From the NCBI RefSeq assembly GCF_988243305.1, contig NZ_OZ547139.1: a stretch of DNA of 64,000 nucleotides; one strand, 5' to 3'. Origin of the DNA: a plasmid. The notes beneath the pieces are model-generated. The model was not told the DNA's origin, searched no databases, and saw nothing but the letters and a program-made list of their open reading frames with translations. Below are positions 25,208 to 36,001 of this stretch, piece after piece. Position 1 is the stretch's first letter; every line of letters begins with the position of its first letter. Both the position numbers and the translations under genes were made by a program.

Positions 25208-25241
25208 GATTATTATACGTCTAATGAGCCATTGCAGGCAA
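25208..25241 (-). promoter_or_regulatory. Leading-region cassette copy 1 (promoter core only)
   Basis: Minus strand: TTGCCT, 18 nt spacer (..atggctcattagacg), TATAAT. Same core as the other copies but with a different UTR. Confidence 0.6.
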
Positions 25242-25280
25242 GAAAAAAATGCCCCTTTTCGAGGCATATTTTTAACCGGT

Positions 25281-25592
25281 TTACCACTCCCAAACGGTCA
25301 GTTCTGGCACCTGTTCTGCATCCCGGTCAAACCAAATCCAGTCGAACCCGGCACCATTTAACGCGGCTATATTATCCAAAGCACTTGCACTGATCCCCGC
25401 CCTGGCTAATTCCACACGCCATTGTTCAGTAGCAGAAATACGCAATATCCACCCATAGCGATTTTTCTCGATCCAGAACAAACCTTGACCGGACAAGTCA
25501 TCGTTACAGACCTTATCCAGTAGCTCCGCGTCTTCTTTTTTTACATGGCCGGTACTGACGACAGCCACCCGATATTGTTCACTGATATTCAT
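25281..25592 (-). CDS. Leading-region protein of unknown function (103 aa), co-transcribed with ssb
   Basis: ORF with a G-rich Shine-Dalgarno, 58 nt after the ssb stop. Confidence 0.6.
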   Translation of the reverse strand: MNISEQYRVAVVSTGHVKKEDAELLDKVCNDDLSGQGLFWIEKNRYGWILRISATEQWRVELARAGISASALDNIAALNGAGFDWIWFDRDAEQVPELTVWEW

Positions 25593-25650
25593 ACTCCCCC
25601 CCCTTCAGGGTTGGCGGCCCGCGCCCTGCGGGCCGTTCTAACTCAAATAC

Positions 25651-26085
25651 TCACTGCGGGTAATCATTCATATCCGGGAACGGCGGTTCATCATGATTTT
25701 CAGTGCCTCCCAGACCTTCAGCACTGGTGTTACGTGGCCCAGCTCCCGGCAGCATCTGCATTTCGCCGTTATTATCGATCACAATTTCCTTGTTACTGCG
25801 CATTTTGCCGTCTGTCCCTTGCCATTTGTTATTACGAATGCGCCCGACAAAATACAGCATCATACCCTTTTTGAAGTACTTCCCAGCTGCTTCGGCCTTC
25901 TTTCCAAAAATGACAACATCATGCCATTCCGTTTCTTTTTGCTCCTTCCCTTCGTTGTCGCTGTAGCTGATTTCTGTAGCCAGCGTCAGGCTCGCAATGG
26001 CCGTTCCGTTTGGGGTGTAACGCACTTCTGCATCTTTGCCAGCACGCCCCATCAGAATCACTTTGTTTTCGCCACGTTTCCACAT
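25651..26085 (-). CDS. ssb: Plasmid single-stranded DNA-binding protein (144 aa from MWKRGENKV)
   Basis: OB-fold N-terminus (NKVILMGRAGKDAEVRYTPNGTAIASLTLAT...WHDVVIFGK), Gly/Asn-rich linker and an acidic Pro-Phe tip (DEPPFPDMNDY). Confidence 0.85.
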   Translation of the reverse strand: MWKRGENKVILMGRAGKDAEVRYTPNGTAIASLTLATEISYSDNEGKEQKETEWHDVVIFGKKAEAAGKYFKKGMMLYFVGRIRNNKWQGTDGKMRSNKEIVIDNNGEMQMLPGAGPRNTSAEGLGGTENHDEPPFPDMNDYPQ

Positions 26086-26156
26086 AATACACCTCATATA
26101 TTTGATGTTTATCAGTAAAAAATGGGAGGATTAAGGGGGATTTCTCCCCCTCTTTA

Positions 26157-26378
26157 TCAGTAAAACTTCACGTTCGATTTCAGGGCTTTTTCAAAGTCTT
26201 TTACAAAGGAATTTGCAAAAGTGTAATCACGATGAATAAGCTGTTTTGTTTTAGGATTTCGCCACTCAACCTGCACTGATTCGGCTGAGTATTCGATCAC
26301 CTCGATTTGATTTTTTACACCGAGATAATCAGCAATTGCCATTACGGCATTCACTTTTTTTTGGTCTGCTTCTTTCAT
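26157..26378 (-). CDS. Leading-region protein of unknown function (73 aa)
   Basis: ORF immediately preceded by a full promoter+UTR cassette. Confidence 0.6.
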   Translation of the reverse strand: MKEADQKKVNAVMAIADYLGVKNQIEVIEYSAESVQVEWRNPKTKQLIHRDYTFANSFVKDFEKALKSNVKFY

Positions 26379-26383
26379 TTCAA

Positions 26384-26468
26384 CTCCTTCGCCAGTCGGG
26401 GCGCTACCGCGAAAGACTCAACTGCCTTTCGATGTAATAATTATACGTCTAATGAGCCACTTTATCAA
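26384..26468 (-). promoter_or_regulatory. Leading-region cassette copy 2 (promoter + UTR + SD)
   Basis: Minus strand: TTGATA, 18 nt spacer, TATAAT, then atcgaaagg..tctttcg, then ggtagcgccccgactggcgaaggag, then ATG. Confidence 0.65.
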
Positions 26469-26497
26469 CTCATCAGACGTATTTTTTTATTTAATTT

Positions 26498-26513
26498 TGT
26501 TCAAATATGAACA
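26498..26513. promoter_or_regulatory. 16-bp palindrome TGTTCA-AATA-TGAACA (copy 1 of 2)
   Basis: Perfect inverted repeat, identical (as reverse complement) to 41080-41095. Confidence 0.4.
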
Positions 26514-26531
26514 TTTATTGATGCTAAATAT

Positions 26532-26816
26532 CTAACATAATGGCTTGAATTTGGCCTTGTTGTAGGTGATCCGGTAGTCTTTGCACTTCCCGTTCTGCCG
26601 CAGGAACTCCAGCGAGACAACGTTAGCAGCGGCAAAATTGATGCACATAATGCTTTCCAGCGCCTCGAACAGGTCGGCCCCATTGGCAAGCGGAAACCAC
26701 AGATCGTTGTCGCTACCGCTTAATTTTTCATGCAGACAGAAATGCACAGCACGCACGCCGCCAAATTCCGTAACCAGCACCGTATTGCTGGCGCGAATAT
26801 CAGTTAGTGTTAACAT
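26532..26816 (-). CDS. Leading-region protein of unknown function (94 aa from MLTLTDIRAS), co-transcribed with klcA
   Basis: The start is moved to ATG 26816, which lies after the post-klcA hairpin and a GGGGGA Shine-Dalgarno. Confidence 0.55.
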   Translation of the reverse strand: MLTLTDIRASNTVLVTEFGGVRAVHFCLHEKLSGSDNDLWFPLANGADLFEALESIMCINFAAANVVSLEFLRQNGKCKDYRITYNKAKFKPLC

Positions 26817-26859
26817 TTTTCCCCCTGTCAGTATTGGCCCCCTCGCGGGGGCCGCCGTT

Positions 26860-27300
26860 TCAGTCAATCGCGCGGTAAATCAAACCGGCTTCGGCGTGCT
26901 GGTCGGCATATAATTTGAGTTTTTCCTGCTGGGTGATCAGCATGTCGCAGATGTGCTGATAGCCTTCTTCATGTGCGTGCCAGATCATGCGGTTCAGGGT
27001 GAACAGGGTCAGCACGATACCGGTAGCTTCTGCGGACAATTCCCCTTCGAACCAGTTACCGCTAACCGATACCGTGAAGCGCTCTGCGCTCAGTGGGTAC
27101 ATGAAGCCGCTACCGCAAGACAGTTCGACGAACTCCCAGGAACCGCCTTGATAATCGGCGCAGAGAGAACGTGCGTGGTTGTAGACACCGGCCTCACCTG
27201 TGAGATACCAGGCGCCGAACAGGCGTGGCAGAAAGGCCATGCGGCGGTTATTGGGGATAATGCGTGCAGTGATGGCGGGTTGATTCAGTTCAGTAGACAT
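26860..27300 (-). CDS. klcA: KlcA/ArdB-family antirestriction protein (146 aa)
   Basis: Colinear with RK2 KlcA as remembered (..FLPRLFG..GE.GVY...LC..Y.GG.W.F..., GELSAEATGIVLTLF, C-terminal IYRAID). Confidence 0.85.
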   Translation of the reverse strand: MSTELNQPAITARIIPNNRRMAFLPRLFGAWYLTGEAGVYNHARSLCADYQGGSWEFVELSCGSGFMYPLSAERFTVSVSGNWFEGELSAEATGIVLTLFTLNRMIWHAHEEGYQHICDMLITQQEKLKLYADQHAEAGLIYRAID

Positions 27301-27308
27301 TTTCTGTA

Positions 27309-27395
27309 CTCCTGCGCCAGTCGGGGCGCTACCGTCGAAAGACCGGATTGCCTTTCGATGTGATTATTATACGTCTAATGAGCCATACCAATCAA
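27309..27395 (-). promoter_or_regulatory. Leading-region cassette copy 3 (full) driving klcA
   Basis: TTGATT, 18 nt spacer, TATAAT, then aatcacATCGAAAGGCAATCCGGTCTTTCGACGGTAGCGCCCCGACTGGCGCAGGAG, then ATG. Confidence 0.7.
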
Positions 27396-27500
27396 GCAAA
27401 ATATTCCCGCCTACCTGAATATTTTCAGGCGGTAGAACTCTTTCCCCTGTCCATTTTTGGGGGCAGGATCACGCCTGCCCCCTTCTGATTCACATGATTA

Positions 27501-27806
27501 CTATGACTTTGTTTCAGCGTTAAAGTGTACGGCTGCGATCCTGACCAACGGGATCACCGCGCTTTCCTCATCGAGCACACGAAAATTTATCGCTTCCCCC
27601 AGGTGCATCAGGTTAGCGATAAAATCAACGATGATTTCGGAAACCGGGTGTCCGTCGCAGTCCTGCTCATTCAGGCGCGCAAACAGCGCCAGCGCCTTAG
27701 CGGCCTTGATTGCCCGCTCTTCGTTTTCTTCGTCCATACTGCCGAAACACCATTGCCCCTTTTCAATCAGGGCCAGCGTGTCGTAATAGGCTTCATTCTG
27801 GGACAT
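27501..27806 (-). CDS. Leading-region protein of unknown function (101 aa)
   Basis: ORF preceded by the conserved translation-initiation module only. Confidence 0.6.
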   Translation of the reverse strand: MSQNEAYYDTLALIEKGQWCFGSMDEENEERAIKAAKALALFARLNEQDCDGHPVSEIIVDFIANLMHLGEAINFRVLDEESAVIPLVRIAAVHFNAETKS

Positions 27807-27813
27807 GTTTTTT

Positions 27814-27840
27814 CCTCCTGCGCCAGTCGGGGCGCTACCG
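27814..27840 (-). promoter_or_regulatory. Leading-region cassette copy 4 (translation-initiation module only)
   Basis: cggtagcgccccgactggcgcaggagg follows directly after the upstream stop codon. No promoter part is present. Confidence 0.6.
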
Positions 27841-27867
27841 TGAAAGTTCGCTGCGTTACTGCATGAA

Positions 27868-28278
27868 TTAGCCGTTAATCACCTTCGTGATGCACTCCAG
27901 CGCCTCAGACTCCTGCGGATAAAGTCGGCGTGCAGCTCCTTCACCAGACTGGATTTCTTCCAGCCGGATAAACTGCGCCGCCAGCGCCACGACTTTTTGC
28001 AGCGCCTCGGCATTGACCTCTATCTTTCGATCGCGGGCGGCATCTTCGCGCACCTGCTTTGCCAGGCTCCAGACGGTATCTTTTCCGACGCCATAACGGC
28101 TGTGTGAACTGCATTCCGCGATTTCTGCCAGAACGGCTTCGGCCTCATCGTCAGTGAGGTTCATATCACTGGTGCAGTCATGGACATCTTCAGCAGTCCA
28201 GATCAGAAGGCTGATCCGCTGCTGTGGTTCAAAACTATCGAGAAGCCTTGCGCAAATTTCATTTACGTTACCGTGCAT
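27868..28278 (-). CDS. Leading-region protein (136 aa), possibly DUF1380-like
   Basis: LLIWTAEDVHDC...LTDDEAEAVLAEIAE resembles the plasmid leading-region DUF1380 family (memory, low certainty). Confidence 0.55.
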   Translation of the reverse strand: MHGNVNEICARLLDSFEPQQRISLLIWTAEDVHDCTSDMNLTDDEAEAVLAEIAECSSHSRYGVGKDTVWSLAKQVREDAARDRKIEVNAEALQKVVALAAQFIRLEEIQSGEGAARRLYPQESEALECITKVING

Positions 28279-28285
28279 TGTAAAA

Positions 28286-28370
28286 CTCCTGCGCCAGTCG
28301 GGGCGCTGCCGCGAAAGACCGGATGCCTTTCGATGTGATTATTATACGTCTAATGAGCCATATCAATCAA
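28286..28370 (-). promoter_or_regulatory. Leading-region cassette copy 5 (full)
   Basis: Same architecture as the other full copies. Its -35 TTGATT overlaps the last codons of the upstream gene. Confidence 0.65.
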
Positions 28371-28599
28371 GCGATTTTTCACGCTCATAGCTGCTACAGG
28401 CAACGCTGTAGCAGTTTGCATCCAGTTCTGAAGGCCAGTCGTCACGCCCGCAACCTGACAGCAGGCAGGCGCTGAGGTGCCCAGGGCGATAGTCGAGATG
28501 CTGGCATGAGGCGCAAAGGTCATCATCTGAGATTGAGCGGCCTGCACAGATAGGCGGCGCGCCATCAGTGGGAATTTCTCGAATATGCAGCGTTGTCAC
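28363..28599 (-). CDS. Cys-rich leading-region protein (78 aa, GTG start)
   Basis: GTG 28599 lies 7 nt after the conserved AGGAG module. 8 Cys residues in 78 aa. The alternative 28350-28565 frame lacks the module. Confidence 0.5.
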   Translation of the reverse strand: MTTLHIREIPTDGAPPICAGRSISDDDLCASCQHLDYRPGHLSACLLSGCGRDDWPSELDANCYSVACSSYEREKSLD

Positions 28600-28607
28600 T
28601 TTTTTTA

Positions 28608-28634
28608 CTCCTGCGCCAGTCGGGGCGCTGCCGG
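28608..28634 (-). promoter_or_regulatory. Leading-region cassette copy 6 (translation-initiation module only)
   Basis: ccggcagcgccccgactggcgcaggag. Confidence 0.6.
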
Positions 28635-28670
28635 TTAGCGATGCAGGGGGCTGTCGCCCCCTGCGGCGGT

Positions 28671-28784
28671 TCAGTCCTTACCCTTATCCTTCATGACTTT
28701 AATCAGCCCGGTAATGGCTGTAATGAGGGCGGCCACGGCCGTGATAATCTGAGGGAGGTTATGGAGGATTTCAGAAGAGGTCAT
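28671..28784 (-). CDS. Unannotated 37-aa single-TM peptide (MTSSEILHNLPQIITAVAALITAITGLIKVMKDKGKD)
   Basis: ATG 28784 lies after AGGTG, with TGA at 28671-28673. It has its own copy of the conserved promoter core and a hairpin at 28643-28664 downstream. Below the ORF-track cutoff. Confidence 0.45.
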   Translation of the reverse strand: MTSSEILHNLPQIITAVAALITAITGLIKVMKDKGKD

Positions 28785-28812
28785 AATGCACCTGTAAGGC
28801 TGTTTAGGAAGG

Positions 28813-28864
28813 TACTGATTTGAATCAGTAAAAACATTATACGTCTAACGAGCCATATATGCAA
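28813..28864 (-). promoter_or_regulatory. Promoter (cassette copy 7, core only) with an 18-bp palindrome at the predicted +1
   Basis: TTGCAT (28864-28859), 17 nt spacer, TATAAT (28841-28836). Palindrome TACTGATT-TG-AATCAGTA at 28813-28830. Confidence 0.55.
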
Positions 28865-28896
28865 GCAAAAAAACGCCCCTTGTAGGGGCGCTGTGA

Positions 28897-29127
28897 TTAT
28901 TTTACATACTGCCAGACATGCGGCGGGATCTTATCCCAGATGCGTCCCGATGCCAGCTCTGCGCGGCGATGGTCGGCGGCAGCCTCAAAAGCCTCGGTGT
29001 CCTCCGGCGGCACCTGTCCACGATCCCGCATGGATTCGTACATTTTTTCCAGTGTGTCCGGGTTACGACTGCGCCGAAAACGGAGAAGGTAAAAACGCCT
29101 CCGTGCCTGATAAACTGTTTCCGCCAT
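28897..29127 (-). CDS. Small protein (76 aa) with C-terminal AADHRRAELASGRIWDKIP motif
   Basis: ORF whose motif is shared with the 14231-14443 product. Confidence 0.55.
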   Translation of the reverse strand: MAETVYQARRRFYLLRFRRSRNPDTLEKMYESMRDRGQVPPEDTEAFEAAADHRRAELASGRIWDKIPPHVWQYVK

Positions 29128-29224
29128 GTATCTGCGTCCTGAGCGCCTTGTTATTTCGCATAGTATTCACGTTTTGGTTGAATAAGTCTTCGACTATACG
29201 CCCCTTGCGGGGCGTAGCAGGCGG

Positions 29225-29563
29225 TCAGCCCCAGGTGCTGTAAAAATGGCTTTCGTTAGGATCGGTCTTATAAGCCTGTTCGTACTCGTCAATGCTGACA
29301 GACGGATGCTCATGGTTTTCACAGATGCGACGGGTCACGGGTTCGCCTTTAAAGTCGTTCAGTACCGGCTTTAACTCGCCAGACATTGCACTGTCTGCTT
29401 TCACCTGCTGCGCAGCGATGCGGCGCAGTACGGCGGTTTTCTTACCGCGCAGGGCGATCACCTGATAAAAACAGGTATTTGTCTGCTCATAACCCCAGCT
29501 GGAAACAAAAACATCACCAAGAGAAACGGAGCCGTTACGGAACTGAAGGGATTGAATAGCCAT
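29225..29563 (-). CDS. Leading-region protein of unknown function (112 aa)
   Basis: ORF preceded by a full cassette. Confidence 0.6.
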   Translation of the reverse strand: MAIQSLQFRNGSVSLGDVFVSSWGYEQTNTCFYQVIALRGKKTAVLRRIAAQQVKADSAMSGELKPVLNDFKGEPVTRRICENHEHPSVSIDEYEQAYKTDPNESHFYSTWG

Positions 29564-29571
29564 GTTTATTA

Positions 29572-29657
29572 CTCCTGCGCCAGTCGGGGCGCTACCGCGA
29601 AAAGCCTCATTGCCTTTCGATGTAATTATTATGCGTCTAATGAGCCATATTAATCAA
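29572..29657 (-). promoter_or_regulatory. Leading-region cassette copy 8 (full; -10 is CATAAT)
   Basis: TTGATT, 18 nt spacer, CATAAT, then a UTR variant (tcgaaaggcaatgaggcttttcg), then ggtagcgccccgactggcgcaggag. Confidence 0.6.
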
Positions 29658-29752
29658 GCAATAAATACATGCCCGGCATGATTTTCTCAGGCCGGGGAAT
29701 ACTTCCTTTCCCTGTTTATATTTCAGGCCGCAAATGCGGCCTGCCGTCTGCA

Positions 29753-30613
29753 TTACACGCGAGGGGGTAACATTCCGGGATAGTGACTGGCAACCAGATT
29801 ATTGATCTTCTCAACCAGCTCCGGGCGTTTAAACGTAATGTGCGCGCTGCCCTTTTTGTAATATCGCACGCTGAAGTAATCACACTCGAACACCTTACCG
29901 TTGAACTGGTTTTCACTGAAAAAGGCATCCAGTTTGGCACCGTCAGAAACACGGTAATCAGGCACGTTACGCCCGTCCAGCACGTAGAACGGCCGCGCCA
30001 GATCGTCAATTTTGGTGTGCCCGTCTGAGCTGAAGCGCACCCAGCCACTGCGCCAGACATCGAGCAACGGCGCGATGATGATACGCTTGCCAAACATGCA
30101 GGGGTTATTGGTTTTATAATCCCACGACAGGGATTTAAAGATATCAATCAGCCCTTGCGTGAAGGTATCGGCCTTACTTGCGTTCAGGTGCCGGAACGTG
30201 CTCATAACGTTCTCCAGCGTTATCGGCGGCATTTCTTCGCCTGCCACCTGCCGATCCCATTCCTGACGTTGTTTGTTGCTCATCAGCGTATACATGCCGG
30301 TTTCCGACATCAGCCGATCCCAGATTTTTCCGTCGATAACGCGGGAAATAGCCGTTTCGGCCTGGTCTGGTCTGGTGTCGCTCCATTTGATCGCGCTCTC
30401 TACGGCTTTGTCGTAGTCATACAGGTACTGACAGCCTCCGGCCTGCTGCATCAGATCGCGCGCTTTTCGCAGCTTGTCTATGCCGTCGAGATAGACGCGA
30501 ATACCTTCATTCCGCAACGAGATAATGCGCTCAATAGCAATGGACGGGATCACTTCACCGCCATGCTGGCAGGACATCAGATCGACCGACGGGAGAGTTT
30601 TTTCAGATGACAT
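29753..30613 (-). CDS. Leading-region protein of unknown function (286 aa from MSSEKTLPSVD)
   Basis: The start is set to ATG 30613 just after the conserved module. The long ORF start at 30682 would overlap the module. No catalytic motif recognised. Confidence 0.6.
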   Translation of the reverse strand: MSSEKTLPSVDLMSCQHGGEVIPSIAIERIISLRNEGIRVYLDGIDKLRKARDLMQQAGGCQYLYDYDKAVESAIKWSDTRPDQAETAISRVIDGKIWDRLMSETGMYTLMSNKQRQEWDRQVAGEEMPPITLENVMSTFRHLNASKADTFTQGLIDIFKSLSWDYKTNNPCMFGKRIIIAPLLDVWRSGWVRFSSDGHTKIDDLARPFYVLDGRNVPDYRVSDGAKLDAFFSENQFNGKVFECDYFSVRYYKKGSAHITFKRPELVEKINNLVASHYPGMLPPRV

Positions 30614-30619
30614 TTCAGA

Positions 30620-30645
30620 CTCCTGCGCCATGCGGGGCGCTACCG
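30620..30645 (-). promoter_or_regulatory. Leading-region cassette copy 9 (translation-initiation module, variant loop)
   Basis: cggtagcgccccgcatggcgcaggag. Confidence 0.55.
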
Positions 30646-30685
30646 TAAGGGGTGAACAGGGCTGGCAATGCCAGCCCATCAATGA

Positions 30686-30865
30686 TTATTTGCAGCGCTG
30701 AAGCAGTTTACTGACCTGCTCGGCCAGCGCATACGTGGACGCATACGGGCCACTTAAACGACGGTTAGGGATTTCGTTGAGGGCATACAGGCACGCCTTC
30801 AGCAGCGCATCTTTCTGCGTGTCCAGTTCAGCTTTAAGCTGGGAGGGGGTCAGTGCTTTACTCAT
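30686..30865 (-). CDS. Unannotated 59-aa protein (MSKALTPSQLKAELDTQKDALLKACLYALNEIPNRRLSGPYASTYALAEQVSKLLQRCK)
   Basis: ATG 30865 follows a full cassette; TAA at 30686-30688. One residue below the ORF-track cutoff. Confidence 0.55.
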   Translation of the reverse strand: MSKALTPSQLKAELDTQKDALLKACLYALNEIPNRRLSGPYASTYALAEQVSKLLQRCK

Positions 30866-30874
30866 AATTTGTTA

Positions 30875-30960
30875 CTCCTGCGCCAGTCGGGGCGCTACCG
30901 CGAAAAGCCTCATTGCCTCTCGATGTGATTATTATACGTCTAATGAGCCACATCAATCAA
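30875..30960 (-). promoter_or_regulatory. Leading-region cassette copy 10 (full)
   Basis: TTGATT, 18 nt spacer, TATAAT, then UTR and module. Confidence 0.65.
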
Positions 30961-31015
30961 GCGTTATCTGATTAATTTTCTTTGTTTTTTCCCGGACTCC
31001 TTTCCCTGTAAATTT

Positions 31016-31472
31016 TGCTTTTCAGATCCCCATCAGCCCGATGAAGGTGCTTTGCCGGCATGGTGCAGGGGTTCAGGCATCAGACACTAGCGATAGCCCG
31101 AAACCCCGCAGGGGGTTCGGCGGAGCTGCCAGGCCTTGCCTGGCTAGCGGAGTGTGGCTGACGACTGCCCGACGGGCAGGAGCCGAAGGGGCCCAGAGGT
31201 GTTTTAGTACGGCAGGCCTGCCAGAAAACGCCGGCAACTGAGCAGAAATGAACAGGGAAGACACGCTGTGCGGGCGTCAAAATTAAGTTAACTGGCAGAC
31301 ACCAGGGCGGGATCACATCAGAAAGGGCCAGAATAGGGGGCAGGACTCGTCAAAGTCACAAAAACGATGATGGGTACAGGTTTTTTAAATGCGCGCCCAG
31401 AGAGCGGCTCAGAGCGTTTCAGGGCAATACGGGTTCGATGCCCGTATTGCCCTGCAGGCGGCAACCACCGCG
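31016..31472 (-). other. Hairpin-rich GC-rich non-coding stretch downstream of the DGQHR gene (candidate structured RNA or ssDNA element)
   Basis: No ORF with a credible SD. Perfect 14-bp hairpin cagggcaatacggg/cccgtattgccctg (31421-31455). At least five further short GC stems lie between 31095 and 31225. Confidence 0.3.
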
Positions 31473-32756
31473 TCAGCCTTCAGCTCCGGCCAGATAGCGG
31501 CTTAGCCCCTCACGGGAAGCCAGCACCGACGCTCTGAACTGCGGTTCGCCGTCACCCAGCGCCTTCAGCTTCTCCACGATATTGATCATCGGCGCGGCAG
31601 TACGCTGCTTATAATTCTCGATGTCGGCTGCATATTTCAGTAATGCCATATCACTCGCCTCCTCAGCTGGCAGGTAATCACGCAACCACAGCGCATCTGC
31701 GAACGGATCTATCAGCTTTTGCAACGCTTCAGCCGTTGCTTCGAGCGCCCGCCTGTCGGTTTTGATGGTGCCTGTCTCCGGATCAACACACTTCCCTTCC
31801 CAGCACTCAGGTACAAACGACTCCCGGTAATGAAAACCGTTGTCACCGTTTTCCGCACAGGCCAGTAGGTTCTCGATGCTTTCAGGGGTTCTGTGCCGTA
31901 ACATCCTGGCCGTTGCCATACCGATCGCATTAATCATGATGCCATGCAGTCCCAGCGCCTCCTGACGGTACTCCGCGGCGATATCATCCTGGGCAATATC
32001 ATTCCAGCGCATCGCCTGCGCCCAGGCAGTCCAGAGTCTTTCTGCCATATCACGCTGTTGCGGCGAGGGAATGCTGTTGGCCCGCAGGTTGAGCATTTTT
32101 TTCGTCGCATCGTTCAGCGCTTTAAAGCTGATAAGCCGTGAGCTTTTTGCCGGGACCACGTTGTGTTCAAAATCCACTGTGCCCGCCAGCCCGGTGACGG
32201 TTCGGGCCAGATGCATTGCCAGCTGGTTGACCGGATCATTGTTGTTATATGCCATACTGATCGCCGCTGCCGGTTTGCTCGCGTTGTTATTAATATCAGC
32301 GAAAAACTGCTGGCGTAACTCAAGTGGCAGGCCAACGGTAAGCAATAAGCTGATCGTATCTTCCGTGTTGGAATAATCGCGTACAAATTCAAAAATACCC
32401 AGCGCACGGTGCTGGCCATCGAATAATTTTAAATCAGCGTCCATCGGAATTTTAAGAATACCGACTGCCGGCGAGAGTTCGCTGGGAAGGAATTCAACAT
32501 GACTATCAATATTTCCGGTAATTGACGGCAAAATATAGGGAGCTCGTTTTGATGTTGCGCCGGCAACATAATTCCGTATTTTTTTGGCCCGCGTTTTGTT
32601 CGCTTCTCGCTGGCTGCGATCCATAACATCGCCATCATTGTCCATTGCGAGAATACGACGTAACACGACCATAGGAACCGTCAGCATGTATTGTTCTATG
32701 CCGCCCTGTATTCCGCGTGTGGCCGGGACTCTGAAAAAATAGTTATCAGTATTCAT
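31473..32756 (-). CDS. DGQHR-domain (DndB-like, ParB/Srx superfamily) protein, 427 aa
   Basis: Literal motif KLFDGQHRALG. The upstream RSQREANKTRAKKIRNY and downstream QFFADINNNASKP fit the DndB-like family as remembered. Confidence 0.7.
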   Translation of the reverse strand: MNTDNYFFRVPATRGIQGGIEQYMLTVPMVVLRRILAMDNDGDVMDRSQREANKTRAKKIRNYVAGATSKRAPYILPSITGNIDSHVEFLPSELSPAVGILKIPMDADLKLFDGQHRALGIFEFVRDYSNTEDTISLLLTVGLPLELRQQFFADINNNASKPAAAISMAYNNNDPVNQLAMHLARTVTGLAGTVDFEHNVVPAKSSRLISFKALNDATKKMLNLRANSIPSPQQRDMAERLWTAWAQAMRWNDIAQDDIAAEYRQEALGLHGIMINAIGMATARMLRHRTPESIENLLACAENGDNGFHYRESFVPECWEGKCVDPETGTIKTDRRALEATAEALQKLIDPFADALWLRDYLPAEEASDMALLKYAADIENYKQRTAAPMINIVEKLKALGDGEPQFRASVLASREGLSRYLAGAEG

Positions 32757-32819
32757 AATATTTCCTTCGTATATCCGATACGTTCAGGAAGCACGTTTGC
32801 GCGTCGGTGTTTTGCGCGG

Positions 32820-33086
32820 CTATTTCCAGATCGGCGGTAAGCCGGCATCGATGCATAGGACACACCAGACGGAATACGCGATGTCACTTTCTCCGTTCAC
32901 CCAGCGGCGCACCGTTCTGCCGTTCACGCCAACATGTCGCGCCAGCCCCTCCTGACTGAGGTTGAGCACATTTTCCAGCAGATAGCGGAGTTCATCCCCC
33001 GTCGGCGGGGTCCATTTATCAGCGGGACGGAAACAACTTTCGCGGATCGCGCCCACGTTAAGCGGCACGGTATATTTATTGCCCAT
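32820..33086 (-). CDS. HTH transcriptional repressor, KorC-like (88 aa from MGNKYTV)
   Basis: HTH LSQEGLARHVGVNGRTVRRWVNG. GGAGG before ATG 33086. A KorC-type palindrome lies in the operon promoter. Confidence 0.6.
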   Translation of the reverse strand: MGNKYTVPLNVGAIRESCFRPADKWTPPTGDELRYLLENVLNLSQEGLARHVGVNGRTVRRWVNGESDIAYSVWCVLCIDAGLPPIWK

Positions 33087-33130
33087 AGCAAGCCTCCAGA
33101 GCCGGCCGCACCACTGTGCGGCCGCGGTTA

Positions 33131-33580
33131 TCAAATCAGACCATGTTCAGCAAAAGAGTAAATATCGCTGCCGCCCACAATCAGGTGATCGAGGACTTTG
33201 ACATCAACCATCCCCAGCACCTGCGCCAGACGCTCGGTGATCAGCTTGTCAGCCTGGCTGGGTGCAGTGTTAGCGGAAGGATGGTTATGCGCCAGTACCA
33301 CGGCGGCGGCATTATGATGCAGGGCGCGTTGCAGGACGATACGCGGATGAACGGTGACGCTGCTGATAGTTCCCTTAAACAGTTCTTCAAACGCAATCAC
33401 GCCGTTGTGGCAGTTAAGAAAGAACGCGCAGAATGATTCGCGTGGTTCTGCAGCAAGACGAAACCGCAGTAAGGAACGCGCGGCGTCGGCGCCGGTGATA
33501 AAATCCGTTGTGGTAATTTTACCGGCAATAATGGCGTCCGCCTGGCGGATAATGTTGAGTTCTTCTGCTGAAAATTTCAT
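33131..33580 (-). CDS. radC: RadC-like JAB-domain protein (149 aa)
   Basis: JAMM-type motif VVLAHNHPSANTAPSQAD and C-terminal DHLIVG. Confidence 0.8.
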   Translation of the reverse strand: MKFSAEELNIIRQADAIIAGKITTTDFITGADAARSLLRFRLAAEPRESFCAFFLNCHNGVIAFEELFKGTISSVTVHPRIVLQRALHHNAAAVVLAHNHPSANTAPSQADKLITERLAQVLGMVDVKVLDHLIVGGSDIYSFAEHGLI

Positions 33581-33628
33581 ATATTTCCCTCGTTAGGGGA
33601 CCTGAGCACCATGCCCGGCCACAAATAT

Positions 33629-33657
33629 ATAATAGGACATTTTGTCCTAGATGTAAA
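33629..33657 (-). promoter_or_regulatory. Promoter with embedded 17-bp KorC-type operator
   Basis: TTTACA (33657-33652), 17 nt spacer, TATTAT (33634-33629). The spacer holds the palindrome TAGGACAAAATGTCCTA (33633-33649), which resembles the RK2 OC operator TAGGGCATAATGCCCTA (memory). Confidence 0.55.
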
Positions 33658-33701
33658 TACAGTTAAATATAAAAAAGCCCGATTTAACGGGCTTTTATGG
33701 T

Positions 33702-34064
33702 CTATTTCTGTCCCCCTGCAATAACTTCCAGTTCCGTCTCTGAAAGCATAATTTTCAGGCAGGGTTTGGTACGGCTGAGAAGTTCAATCGACCTCGGATC
33801 GAGGTCCAGGGATTCGCAAAAATCATCTCCGCCACAGGCATCACGCATCCGGTCCCAGAGCTCGTCAAAATCCGTTGTATCCGGATTGAAACCATTGGCG
33901 TAACAGACATTGTGCATCCCATTACTGTTTTTCTCACCTTTCGCCGCCATCACATACACGCCATGATCTTTGACAAAAAGAAGCGGGCAATTAAAACGCT
34001 TAACTTCAGCAATAACGACGTTGAGCATAGGATCAGTAAAAACAAGTTCTGATTGCATGGTCAT
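33702..34064 (-). CDS. Leading-region protein of unknown function (120 aa)
   Basis: ORF followed by a strong terminator (aaaagcccgttaaatcgggctttttt on the minus strand). Confidence 0.6.
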   Translation of the reverse strand: MTMQSELVFTDPMLNVVIAEVKRFNCPLLFVKDHGVYVMAAKGEKNSNGMHNVCYANGFNPDTTDFDELWDRMRDACGGDDFCESLDLDPRSIELLSRTKPCLKIMLSETELEVIAGGQK

Positions 34065-34085
34065 AGTGTATTTACTCCCTGAAAG

Positions 34086-34349
34086 CTATTTGTTGACCGC
34101 AGCGGCGGTGAGAATGTCAGAAAGCGACCCCAGCAGGTATAATTCGGTGAGCTCGCCTGTTTCATTCAGAAGAAATAGCCCTGCAGGTCGGCCATTATGA
34201 AAAATAATGGCTTCATGCGATTGATGTAATTCACACTGACACAGCGAGAAATAAATAAGTGACCATTCAGGGGAAATAACGGTTTTATTGCCATGTTCCC
34301 GGATATAGCGGGCAACATCAGCCTGTTGCTGAGAATTGAGAGCAGTCAT
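34086..34349 (-). CDS. Leading-region protein of unknown function (87 aa)
   Basis: ORF preceded by a full cassette. Confidence 0.6.
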   Translation of the reverse strand: MTALNSQQQADVARYIREHGNKTVISPEWSLIYFSLCQCELHQSHEAIIFHNGRPAGLFLLNETGELTELYLLGSLSDILTAAAVNK

Positions 34350-34356
34350 AAGGTGA

Positions 34357-34443
34357 CTCCTGCGCCGGTCGGGGCGCTACCGTCGAAAGACCGGATTGCC
34401 TTTCGATGTGATTATTATACGTCTAACGAGCCATATAAATCAA
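34357..34443 (-). promoter_or_regulatory. Leading-region cassette copy 11 (full, near-identical to the klcA copy)
   Basis: TTGATT, 18 nt spacer, TATAAT, then ATCGAAAGGCAATCCGGTCTTTCGACGGTAGCGCCCCGACCGGCGCAGGAG. Confidence 0.7.
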
Positions 34444-34466
34444 GTTAATTTTGTTATTTTCCTGGT

Positions 34467-34877
34467 TTAAGGAGACTCTTTCCCCTGTAAATTTTGCATC
34501 ACAAGCGCACCGTTCGGGCGCTGCAGGCGAATAATATCGTTCTGGCGAGCGTCTTTTTCCCGGATGATCCGCCAGGTTTCGGTGACGGCGCCGGCTGGCT
34601 GATACAGTCTGACCTTCACCTCGGAACGCTCTGCAGACAGCACAATGCAGCCTTTCTCATCTTGTGCAGCTGCGTGCCGGGCTTCATCTTTATCCCGCGG
34701 GCAGTCATCAAATCCTGATATTCGGACCGGATGGCCATCGATATCAACCTGATAGCCGGGCGAAATCACGGGCACGGGCTGTGGCACATTCGGGAAATAA
34801 TCAGCCAGATCACACCCTGTCAGGGCTACGGGCACAAGGCAGGCATACAGCATTAACATTCGGCGTGTGGTGATCAT
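34467..34877 (-). CDS. Lipoprotein of unknown function (136 aa)
   Basis: Lipobox VALTGC. Confidence 0.6.
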   Translation of the reverse strand: MITTRRMLMLYACLVPVALTGCDLADYFPNVPQPVPVISPGYQVDIDGHPVRISGFDDCPRDKDEARHAAAQDEKGCIVLSAERSEVKVRLYQPAGAVTETWRIIREKDARQNDIIRLQRPNGALVMQNLQGKESP

Positions 34878-34905
34878 AAAGGGTCCTCTCTGGTCGCCGC
34901 GGGCC

Positions 34906-35385
34906 TTATTTCACCTTCTCAACCAGCTGCAGTGAAGGATGCTCACCGGCCAGCAGTAACAGGAAATTGAATTCCCCGGTCTTGAGCTTTACGCCGCGCT
35001 GAGCAGCCTTTTCTTTGGTCTGCCATGACGCCGGTTTATAGCCAAACAGCGCTGCAATTTCAGCGTGCTTCAGCCCCAGCGCCAGACGCAGGCGGCGAAC
35101 GTCTTCGGCCGTGGCGGGATCTTTGACCATATCATCCGGACTGAATGCCCTGTTCAGGCGGTAATCAGGATGCACGCCGGCGATCAGCATCAGCATGTTA
35201 TATTCGCCTGGGCGAAGACTGGTCTTGTTGTACTGGCTGAGATCGTCGCTGATAGCTTCCTTACGCTGCCAGGCGCGCAGTTCGTACCCCATGACGGCCC
35301 CTAATGCGGTTTCAGTCATGCCCATTTTTTCCCGGAGCGTCTTCACTGTTTCCGGCTGCGGAACGACGCTAACCATCTTAATCAT
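34906..35385 (-). CDS. Tandem double-HTH DNA-binding protein (159 aa)
   Basis: Internal duplication: TLREKMGMTETALGAVMGYELRAWQRKE...GEYNMLMLIAGVHP versus RRLRLALGLKHAEIAALFGYKPASWQTKE...GEFNFLLLLAGEHP. Confidence 0.6.
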   Translation of the reverse strand: MIKMVSVVPQPETVKTLREKMGMTETALGAVMGYELRAWQRKEAISDDLSQYNKTSLRPGEYNMLMLIAGVHPDYRLNRAFSPDDMVKDPATAEDVRRLRLALGLKHAEIAALFGYKPASWQTKEKAAQRGVKLKTGEFNFLLLLAGEHPSLQLVEKVK

Positions 35386-35884
35386 TACCCTTCTCCCAGA
35401 AGTCTGAATTCAGAAAAATTTTCACCTGGCGTGTGCGGGGATAGTCCTGGTGCTTCAGCCCCTCCCGCGTGTCAGACAGGTACTGCGTTTCCTGCTGCAC
35501 CTTGTTGATTTTGCCATTCCATTTGCGGGCCAGCGCCCGGTAACTCCCGTTCTCCAGCTGATAAACTTCAAACGTATACTTGTTCGGACCGCTCCAGCCT
35601 TCGTTGTAATAGACCTGTTTCATAGGATCTGCCTGATCGATGCGCCCCGTAAACATGACATCCCGGCTGCATTGCCTGAACCAGTAACCGCGGGGCATAG
35701 CCGGTGGCCGGTCGCTTATTTCCCGTCTGGATAGCGTGCCGAAAGGCTGTGAGCGCAGGTGACAACCTGATCTCAGGTCAATCGGGCATGACGTGTTGTG
35801 CAGGGACCAGCGCCGCTGCCGCAGACAATGGCTCAGGGTGATCACAGGAACGACACGGGAAACGAACAGGGGGAATGATTGCAT
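35378..35884 (-). CDS. Leading-region protein of unknown function (168 aa)
   Basis: ATG 35884 follows cassette copy 12. The stop overlaps the next gene's start. Confidence 0.5.
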   Translation of the reverse strand: MQSFPLFVSRVVPVITLSHCLRQRRWSLHNTSCPIDLRSGCHLRSQPFGTLSRREISDRPPAMPRGYWFRQCSRDVMFTGRIDQADPMKQVYYNEGWSGPNKYTFEVYQLENGSYRALARKWNGKINKVQQETQYLSDTREGLKHQDYPRTRQVKIFLNSDFWEKGND

Positions 35885-35891
35885 GGTTTTA

Positions 35892-35961
35892 CTCCTTCGC
35901 CAGTCGGGGCGCTACCGAAAAATGAGCCTTGATAATACGACGAATGAGCCATATAAATCAA
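35892..35961 (-). promoter_or_regulatory. Leading-region cassette copy 12 (shortened UTR variant)
   Basis: TTGATT, 18 nt spacer, TATTAT, then ..cggtagcgccccgactggcgaaggag. Confidence 0.6.
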
Positions 35962-36001
35962 GTTAAAAATCAGGCGGCAGAGTTTCTGCCGCTGCTGTAG
36001 G

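Follow-up and report, generated by a model that had tools for sequence, protein, structure and literature searches.

What does a KorC repressor do on a plasmid that offers it a single operator, placed in the promoter of its own operon? This question is raised by a 64,000-nucleotide stretch of plasmid DNA (RefSeq assembly GCF_988243305.1, contig NZ_OZ547139.1; the whole stretch is hereafter called the window), the minus strand of which carries three consecutive genes coding for a RadC-like JAB protein, a KorC homologue and a DGQHR-domain protein. In our judgement, the locus as a whole is probably best explained by a single promoter that is repressed by KorC and autoregulated, that would fire in a burst on entry into a new cell, and for which korC is indispensable owing to a harmful product of the operon, most likely the RadC-like protein. 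The source of the window is an IncL/M conjugative resistance plasmid. Indeed, the 2.8-kb operon region is 100% identical to that of pNDM-HK (typed as IncL/M, MOBP and MPF_I) and of many other IncL/M plasmids, and 1282 PLSDB records, mainly from Klebsiella and mainly conjugative, match it. Among the matches listed are 58-66-kb IncL plasmids of the pOXA-48 type, with approximately 98% identity to the operon region; their pOXA-48-type label is backed by exact operator and KorC matches in one such plasmid (L004, NC_023027.1).

The observation of a KorC-type operator within the operon promoter is confirmed. The promoter consists of the -35 hexamer TTTACA (33652..33657, minus strand), a 17-nt spacer and the -10 hexamer TATTAT (33629..33634, minus strand), exactly as a first, sequence-only reading of the locus had placed it (33657-33629), and represents the top sigma-70-like match on the minus strand between positions 31200 and 34200, agreeing with the consensus at 10 of 12 positions. 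The operator, TAGGACAAAATGTCCTA (33633..33649, minus strand), covers 15 of the 17 spacer bases as well as the first two bases of the -10 hexamer, and has the form of the KorC-family dyad, TAGG-N9-CCTA. That reading described it as a perfect 17-bp palindrome, which needs correcting: it is built of two seven-base arms, TAGGACA and TGTCCTA, around a central AAA, and its reverse complement reads TAGGACATTTTGTCCTA. No other site in the window lies within three mismatches of the pattern, and this operator is the only KorC-controlled promoter site predicted there. The KorA operator GTTTAGCTAAAC is absent from the window, which argues against co-repression by KorA.

The name given to the operator is supported by its distribution in other plasmids and by the homology of the 88-residue protein described below. 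The RK2-type operator that had been used for comparison, TAGGGCATAATGCCCTA, is correct: in the IncP-1alpha plasmid pBS228, used here as the RK2-type reference, it occurs twice, in the kle promoters, and it shares 14 of 17 bases with the site in the window, rather than the 13 initially counted. More tellingly, TAGGACAAAATGTCCTA is found at 17 of 17 positions in two IncP-1 plasmids outside the alpha subgroup (L002 and L003), in the promoters of klcA and kleA, again between -35 and -10 hexamers and with the final TA of the operator beginning the -10. The presence of the exact 17-mer in these promoters takes the match beyond chance. Variants of the operator in more distant plasmids, TAGGGCATAATGCCCTA in IncP-1alpha, TAGGCCAAAATGGCCTA in an IncU-like element and TAGGATAATTTATCCTA in a Neisseria plasmid, carry substitutions with a mirror-image counterpart in the other arm, a pattern to be expected if a dimeric repressor binds there. 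A literature search with the operator string found no occurrence.

The same architecture is retrieved outside characterized plasmids. An exact-match scan of metagenome contigs detected the 17-mer in 120 loci, 26 of which (36 sites) contain the complete cassette; the remaining loci are probably chance matches. Within the IncL/M type, nine distinct versions of the promoter could be distinguished: the operator is unchanged in eight of them, the -35 hexamer TTTACA is likewise kept in eight, and the upstream DNA is wholly different in two. The ninth version, found in an Enterobacter sp. contig (L014 3438-3454, NZ_JBGKEB010000021.1), differs at two bases of one operator arm (TAGGACAAATTGACCTA), has a weakened -35 hexamer, TTTGCA, and encodes a KorC that is 100% identical; judging from these bases, the operator-down change may be offset by the promoter-down change. 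The genes directly behind the KorC operator (OC) cassettes elsewhere are typical establishment cargo; among their products are antirestriction proteins of the KlcA/ArdB type, KleA, DUF2688 proteins and small proteins of unknown function. An unrelated G+C-rich element in a metagenome contig (L074 12435-13827, Ga0209370_1000365) harbours two tandem KorC-type promoter cassettes. One of them precedes a gene for a DUF4942 protein, 29% identical to the product of orf26 of the window (29753-30613), and the other a gene for a RadC-like JAB protein, 38% identical to that of the window; the locus ends before any downstream korC becomes visible.

The resemblance to IncP-1 promoters extends into the transcribed region. 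A hairpin, GGCCGGGC-loop-GCUCAGGUC (33599..33620, minus strand), the pattern of which occurs once in the window, is located at or near the 5' end of the transcript, approximately 7-11 nt past the -10 hexamer. Its counterpart, GGCCGGGC-loop-GCCCAGGUC, is found downstream of the OC promoters in all KorC-bearing plasmids compared except the Neisseria plasmid; besides that of the window, copies were located in L002 (1524-1545 and 3642-3663), L003, L005, L007 and L009. The alignment of these leaders folds into seven pairs, in which G-C gives way to G-U and, in one case, C-G to U-A, and the hairpin corresponds to no Rfam family. The IncP and IncU copies then run into a conserved translation start region, ACCGGAGA..CCGATG, which the window lacks. 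Since the leader is shared as well, the whole promoter-operator-leader unit is homologous across IncP-1, IncU-like and IncL/M plasmids. As to its function, we can only guess that the hairpin stabilizes the 5' end of the mRNA.

The protein that would act on this site is encoded by korC (88 residues; 32820..33086, minus strand; GGAGG ribosome-binding site). It had been called a KorC-like helix-turn-helix (HTH) protein, and it is indeed a KorC homologue: a BLASTP alignment of 82 residues with IncP-1 KorC shows 39% identity (pairwise E = 7e-19), the IncP-1alpha version from pBS228 is 45% identical to it, and 15 positions are invariant in an alignment of seven homologues. Its tblastn matches in IncP plasmids carry KorC annotation, and a genome search with the single KorC protein returned only IncL/M-type contigs. 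In Pfam, it scores below threshold for both HTH_3 (21.7 bits, cut-off 23) and HTH_31 (19.7 bits, cut-off 27); a PDB sequence search returned only non-significant matches to the HTH of AcrIF24. Profile searches with KorC and the RadC-like protein gave no toxin or antitoxin family match except a weak YdaS-like HTH hit. On the comparative evidence, KorC very likely binds the single promoter identified here. With the operator sitting in the promoter of its own operon, autorepression, as proposed in the sequence-only reading, would be the natural interpretation.

The closest known element is the orf24-korC promoter of pOXA-48, which is the same element: L004 agrees with the window throughout operator, -35, -10 and leader. 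Baffert et al. (2025, Nat Commun 16:7734, PMC12365149) assigned a putative KorC site to the stretch that separates the -35 from the -10 hexamer of this promoter and proposed autoregulation; they took the KorC consensus for IncL/M from Ludwiczak et al. (2013, Plasmid 70:131), reported that pOXA-48 KorC is 39% similar to RP4 KorC and, in their table S1, assigned Orf24 to the RadC superfamily and Orf25 to the DndB superfamily. The window differs from pOXA-48 in being an IncM-type relative with an intact DGQHR gene, whereas the pOXA-48 copy is split by IS1. Moreover, Baffert et al. (PMC12365149) are silent on the identity with IncP-1 sites, on the shared leader hairpin and on the gene behind the essentiality of korC.

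Among other systems, the control of klcA, kleA and kleC in IncP-1 plasmids (RK2/RP4 and R751-type) is also close, with a homologous repressor (39-45% identity), an operator that is identical (L002, L003) or matches at 14 of 17 positions (IncP-1alpha), the same place within the promoter, the same leader and a korC gene in a self-repressed operon. However, IncP-1 plasmids have two or three OC promoters plus a KorA operator, whereas the window has one OC and no KorA operator. The cargo also differs, being radC-like and DGQHR genes in the window versus klcA/klcB and kle genes in IncP-1, and the klcA homologue of the window is devoid of an OC. An IncU-type segment (L005) encodes a KorC homologue and repeats this architecture and leader at three OC-type sites, but its operator arms differ (TAGGCCA/TGGCCTA). 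KorC of the IncU plasmid RA3 is said, in the title of the 2013 report by Ludwiczak and colleagues, to be a global regulator of three backbone modules.

From these likenesses, a likely mode of action can be drawn. The -35 hexamer, the 17-bp KorC operator in the spacer, the -10 hexamer and the leader hairpin together form a portable cassette, the same that IncP-1 klcA and kleA use. A KorC dimer seated on the operator would occlude RNA polymerase and, korC being the second gene of its own operon, would thereby exert negative autoregulation. In established hosts, steady-state expression of the operon would be low. In a KorC-free recipient, by contrast, the RadC-like, KorC and DGQHR proteins would be produced in a transient burst (zygotic induction) followed by shut-off by KorC. 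Such a burst is to be expected by analogy with RP4, because klcA of that plasmid, which is repressed by KorA and KorC, is induced approximately 120- to 220-fold in new transconjugants (PMC7314908). Finally, loss of KorC would result in over-expression of a harmful operon product, most likely the RadC-like JAB protein and not the DGQHR protein.

This last step draws on two published screens of pOXA-48, a plasmid the KorC protein of which is identical to that of the window. Transposon sequencing (Tn-seq) recovered zero insertions in korC (Baffert et al. 2025, PMC12365149), and silencing of korC by CRISPR interference (CRISPRi) led to loss of pOXA-48 (Calvo-Villamanan et al. 2025, PMC12361523). 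This essentiality is not due to the DGQHR protein, because its gene is split by IS1 in pOXA-48 and korC is still essential. In the pOXA-48-type plasmid NC_023027.1 (L004 4331-6390), IS1B interrupts the gene after codon 107, before the DGQHR motif; the same split is present in 63-65-kb pOXA-48-type plasmids, the window, pNDM-HK and some 58-59-kb IncL plasmids have the gene uninterrupted. In the Tn-seq data from E. coli, which come in two condition blocks, insertions in the DGQHR gene are rated non-essential (NE), except that those in the 5' fragment are rated growth-advantage (GA) in the second block (PMC12365149).

For orf24, the radC-like gene, insertions were tolerated at 86% of TA sites (PMC12365149). 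The CRISPRi screen, with five guides per gene and silencing that is polar on downstream genes, scored korC as significant and orf24 not; in the same screen, guides against orf19 phenocopied orf20 (PMC12361523), and orf19 insertions were judged polar on the essential orf20 in the Tn-seq study (PMC12365149). The simplest reading is that a block of the whole operon is harmless and a block at korC harmful, radC then being transcribed from a derepressed promoter. On this reading, the RadC-like JAB protein is most likely the harmful 'kil' product that KorC would restrain. Two further findings favour this candidate: the 38%-identical RadC-like gene directly behind an OC cassette in an unrelated element (L074), and the natural variant that pairs a damaged operator with a weakened -35 (L014). 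A literature search on RadC or JAB toxicity returned nothing relevant.

The protein in question (149 residues; orf24, 33131..33580, minus strand) was rightly recognized as RadC-like and JAB-domain-containing, PF04002 being matched across the full profile (positions 3-121, E = 3.6e-40). Its JAMM motif, H-x-H-x7-S-x2-D, is intact (HNHPSANTAPSQAD from residue 98), and it matches PDB entry 2qlc with E = 2.9e-22. It lacks the N-terminal helix-hairpin-helix (HhH) domain: only positions 81-212 of the RadC equivalog profile are matched, and scores fall below the cut-offs of full-length RadC (143.9 versus 180 bits for NF000642, 126.9 versus 133.85 bits for TIGR00608). We advance tentatively a more specific proposal, in which the RadC-like protein is the kil product and autorepression of a kil-kor operon supplies new hosts with a single burst of two factors for establishment, a JAB hydrolase and, if its gene is intact, an orphan nucleoside triphosphate (NTP)-binding DGQHR protein of ParB fold, the latter belonging to an unrecognized class of early-expressed cargo of mobile elements.

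Several points weigh against the explanation that we favour. We infer binding and repression by the IncL/M KorC, and we infer the co-transcription of the three genes solely from gap lengths, the missing T-run terminator and the missing consensus promoter within radC. Only three TA sites were counted in korC (PMC12365149); with this number, zero insertions would arise by luck in approximately 6% of cases, so that the Tn-seq result alone could be due to chance. Our own count gives 10 TA dinucleotides in the 267-bp korC, and the published gene model or way of counting differs. It is by indirect reasoning that RadC is proposed as the harmful product, and a korC promoter inside radC would explain the same orf24 data. 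Lastly, the promoter itself is without transposon insertions (PMC12365149), which goes against a pure model of RadC toxicity, from which tolerance would be expected, unless the transposon reads outward.

The third product of the operon (427 residues; orf25, 31473..32756, minus strand) had been described as a DndB-like DGQHR protein of the ParB/sulfiredoxin (Srx) superfamily, and this description holds. PF14072 spans residues 11-347 (197.6 bits for a cut-off of 29.1, E = 3.7e-58) and TIGR03187 scores 231.1 bits (cut-off 58.85); the N-terminal part adopts a ParB/Srx-type fold and is followed by a helical C-terminal part. The DGQHR motif occupies residues 113-117; a set of 51 homologues shows no variation at D113, G114 or Q115, and H116 and R117 are kept by at least 90% of them. 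The protein thus shares with DndB the motif, the PF14072 domain and the ParB/Srx-type fold. Unlike DndB, it has no dndCDE neighbours and approximately 80 extra C-terminal residues, it is only 29-37% identical to annotated DndB proteins, and it scores 159.6 bits against the DndB equivalog TIGR03233 for a cut-off of 328. The phage family phrog_7901 (unknown function; E = 8.8e-89) fits it better than any DndB model does, and a PDB sequence search gave no match. The DndB-type box TACG-N10-CGTA is absent from the window, which argues against the DGQHR protein being an autorepressor acting through a DndB-like site.

Homologues of this protein come in two forms, a plasmid form of approximately 425-440 residues and a form of approximately 355 residues, an abundant example of which (P0061) lies in the early region of a lambdoid prophage and adjoins an HTH_ParB protein. 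An IncN-like plasmid carries a 72%-identical copy beside ardA, klcA and ardR; since this copy has a different promoter and no korC, the DGQHR protein is not bound to regulation by KorC. In four other mobile elements, the homologues also stand alone, without dnd genes, and only one distant homologue (L012, 35% identical) is paired with a DndC-like PAPS-reductase protein. In two other enterobacterial plasmids (L016 6001-8060 and L011 5073-7066), the homologue stands directly upstream of psiA, which it overlaps in L016; in F-like and IncI plasmids, the slot upstream of psiA is occupied by psiB. Because the homologues recur in early-expressed regions of mobile elements, a role in establishment or counter-defence appears plausible from gene context. 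There is no specific pointer to phosphorothioation, and the pOXA-48 lineage manages without the gene.

Three other explanations of the locus deserve consideration. The least probable by far is that the palindrome is no protein site at all but an inverted repeat due to chance or a small hairpin resembling a terminator. A terminator scan does list it, as a seven-pair stem followed by a T-rich stretch, but the stem holds just three G-C pairs, and what follows it as a T-rich tail is in fact the -10 hexamer; the exact identity with IncP-1 promoter operators, the constant position relative to the -35 and -10 in the 36 metagenomic sites and the mirrored substitutions across plasmid families are all contrary to such an origin, which we regard as highly improbable. 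It is also unlikely, if to a lesser degree, that the DGQHR protein is the point of the operon, as a DndB-like regulator or decoy that would appear in a burst upon entry and disturb Dnd/Dpt or ParB-type systems of the recipient, along the lines suggested in the sequence-only reading. Its true DGQHR and ParB/Srx fold, the role of DndB as a DNA-binding repressor of dnd operons (PMC4507180) and the orphan homologues near ardA, klcA, ardR and psiA in leading regions and in a prophage early region would suit such an activity. However, the DndB equivalog score remains under the cut-off, the window is devoid of a DndB-type site, and IS1 has put the gene out of action, without visible cost, in a lineage as successful as that of pOXA-48; besides, orphan DGQHR proteins have no published link to counter-defence and go unmentioned in Samuel et al. 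2024.

A stronger competitor, although we still hold it to be rather doubtful, is an addiction module of toxin-antitoxin or kil-kor character serving plasmid retention, in which, upon loss of the plasmid, the RadC-like protein would be over-produced or outlive a short-lived KorC and so harm the plasmid-free cell, and establishment would be secondary. In both screens, korC behaves like the antitoxin gene pemI and the regulator gene orf20 (PMC12365149, PMC12361523), deletion of pemK strengthened plasmid loss upon korC silencing (PMC12361523), and 'kor' genes were first defined as overriding host-lethal 'kil' genes (Baffert et al., PMC12365149). Nevertheless, silencing of korC yields plasmid loss and not retention, which suggests a cost selecting plasmid-free cells rather than killing, and a repressor has nothing to act on after loss of its target DNA, unless RadC mRNA or protein is stable enough to outlast the plasmid.

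The layout of the locus is compatible with a single transcription unit governed by the KorC-repressed promoter. The gaps between radC and korC (44 nt) and between korC and the DGQHR gene (63 nt) are short and contain no T-run terminator, and a promoter scan found no consensus promoter within radC; the three genes are therefore likely to be co-transcribed. The first gap contains a G+C-rich 9-bp hairpin without T run (33103..33124, minus strand), the fold of which is no better than that of shuffled sequence (z = -1.2). A perfect 14-bp hairpin, also without T run, lies 19 nt past the stop codon of the DGQHR gene (31420..31454, minus strand; z = -4.3, none of 200 shuffles folding as well) and is the probable 3' end or stabilizer of the operon transcript. 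Upstream, the operon is preceded by a DUF3085 gene (orf23, 34064-33702, minus strand), the intrinsic terminator of which (33673..33696, minus strand; a nine-pair stem, then a T run) would insulate the operon promoter from read-through. Downstream, some 600 nt between the DGQHR gene and ccgA1 (30865-30686) hold no annotated gene (30866-31472); this segment is G+C-rich with several local hairpins, and when folded as single-stranded DNA in search of an Frpo-like single-strand promoter it proved unremarkable (z = -1.2). A scan of 31000-34500 and 30600-31500 against Rfam returned no match besides two sub-threshold rimP-leader hits, overlapping the terminator and promoter, which we judged to be due to chance.

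On the scale of the plasmid, the relaxase genes map to approximately 21.2-23.7 kb of the window by comparison with pNDM-HK, and oriT is therefore presumed to lie beside them. The ssb gene, the klcA-type antirestriction gene and the radC-korC-DGQHR operon are all oriented towards the relaxase region. An orientation towards oriT is expected of leading-region genes (Samuel et al. 2024), and the position of the operon fits the leading region, the part transferred first, in agreement with what had been supposed. The absence of dndCDE or dpt partners was likewise borne out among the genes annotated within approximately 12 kb on either side.

The surrounding stretch (25212-35966, minus strand) has an organization of its own. 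Nine to ten copies of a promoter-plus-leader cassette of approximately 95 nt stand before small leading-region genes, copies being seen at approximately 25212, 26377-26471, 27303-27397, 27804, 28278-28372, 28597, 28836, 29565-29659, 30609, 30868-30962, 34351-34445 and 35881-35966. The repeated sequence reads TTGATT, 17 nt, TATAAT, then GGTAGCGCCCCGACTGGCGCAGGAG ahead of the ATG, and we take it to resemble the CUP repeats of IncN plasmids. The radC-korC-DGQHR operon is the unit of this stretch with a KorC cassette in place of the repeated one. Leading-region genes of the IncN plasmids pKM101/R46 are reportedly CUP-controlled, as described by Delver and Belogurov in 1997; like these regions, the leading region of the window is composed of small units that each have a copy of a strong, repeated promoter cassette in front. 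In the IncN-like plasmid, the DGQHR homologue stands behind such a repeated promoter, whereas the operon of the window uses the IncP-type KorC cassette instead. A 159-residue protein with two similar Xre/MqsA-like HTH halves, homologous to Orf20 of pOXA-48, is encoded at 34906-35385 (minus strand). Like KorC, pOXA-48 Orf20 was essential in both 2025 studies (PMC12365149, PMC12361523). One may guess that this essential XRE protein is the repressor of the repeated cassettes.

The core of these results, operator and autoregulation, is already known for pOXA-48, and the operator and family assignments add nothing to the literature or to RefSeq, which labels the three genes as JAB domain-containing, helix-turn-helix regulator and DGQHR domain-containing. 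What is added is the exact identity of the operator with IncP-1 sites along with its symmetric variants, a leader shared across plasmid families, the exclusion of the DGQHR protein as the cause of korC essentiality and the designation of the RadC-like protein as a testable candidate. Carbapenemase and extended-spectrum beta-lactamase genes have major carriers in IncL/M plasmids, among them pOXA-48, pNDM-HK and pCTX-M3. Two studies of 2025 established that korC cannot be lost from pOXA-48 and left the reason open (PMC12365149, PMC12361523). Comparative evidence and these published screens together narrow the search for the harmful target to the radC-like gene, and blocking KorC suggests itself as a possible lever for curing such plasmids.

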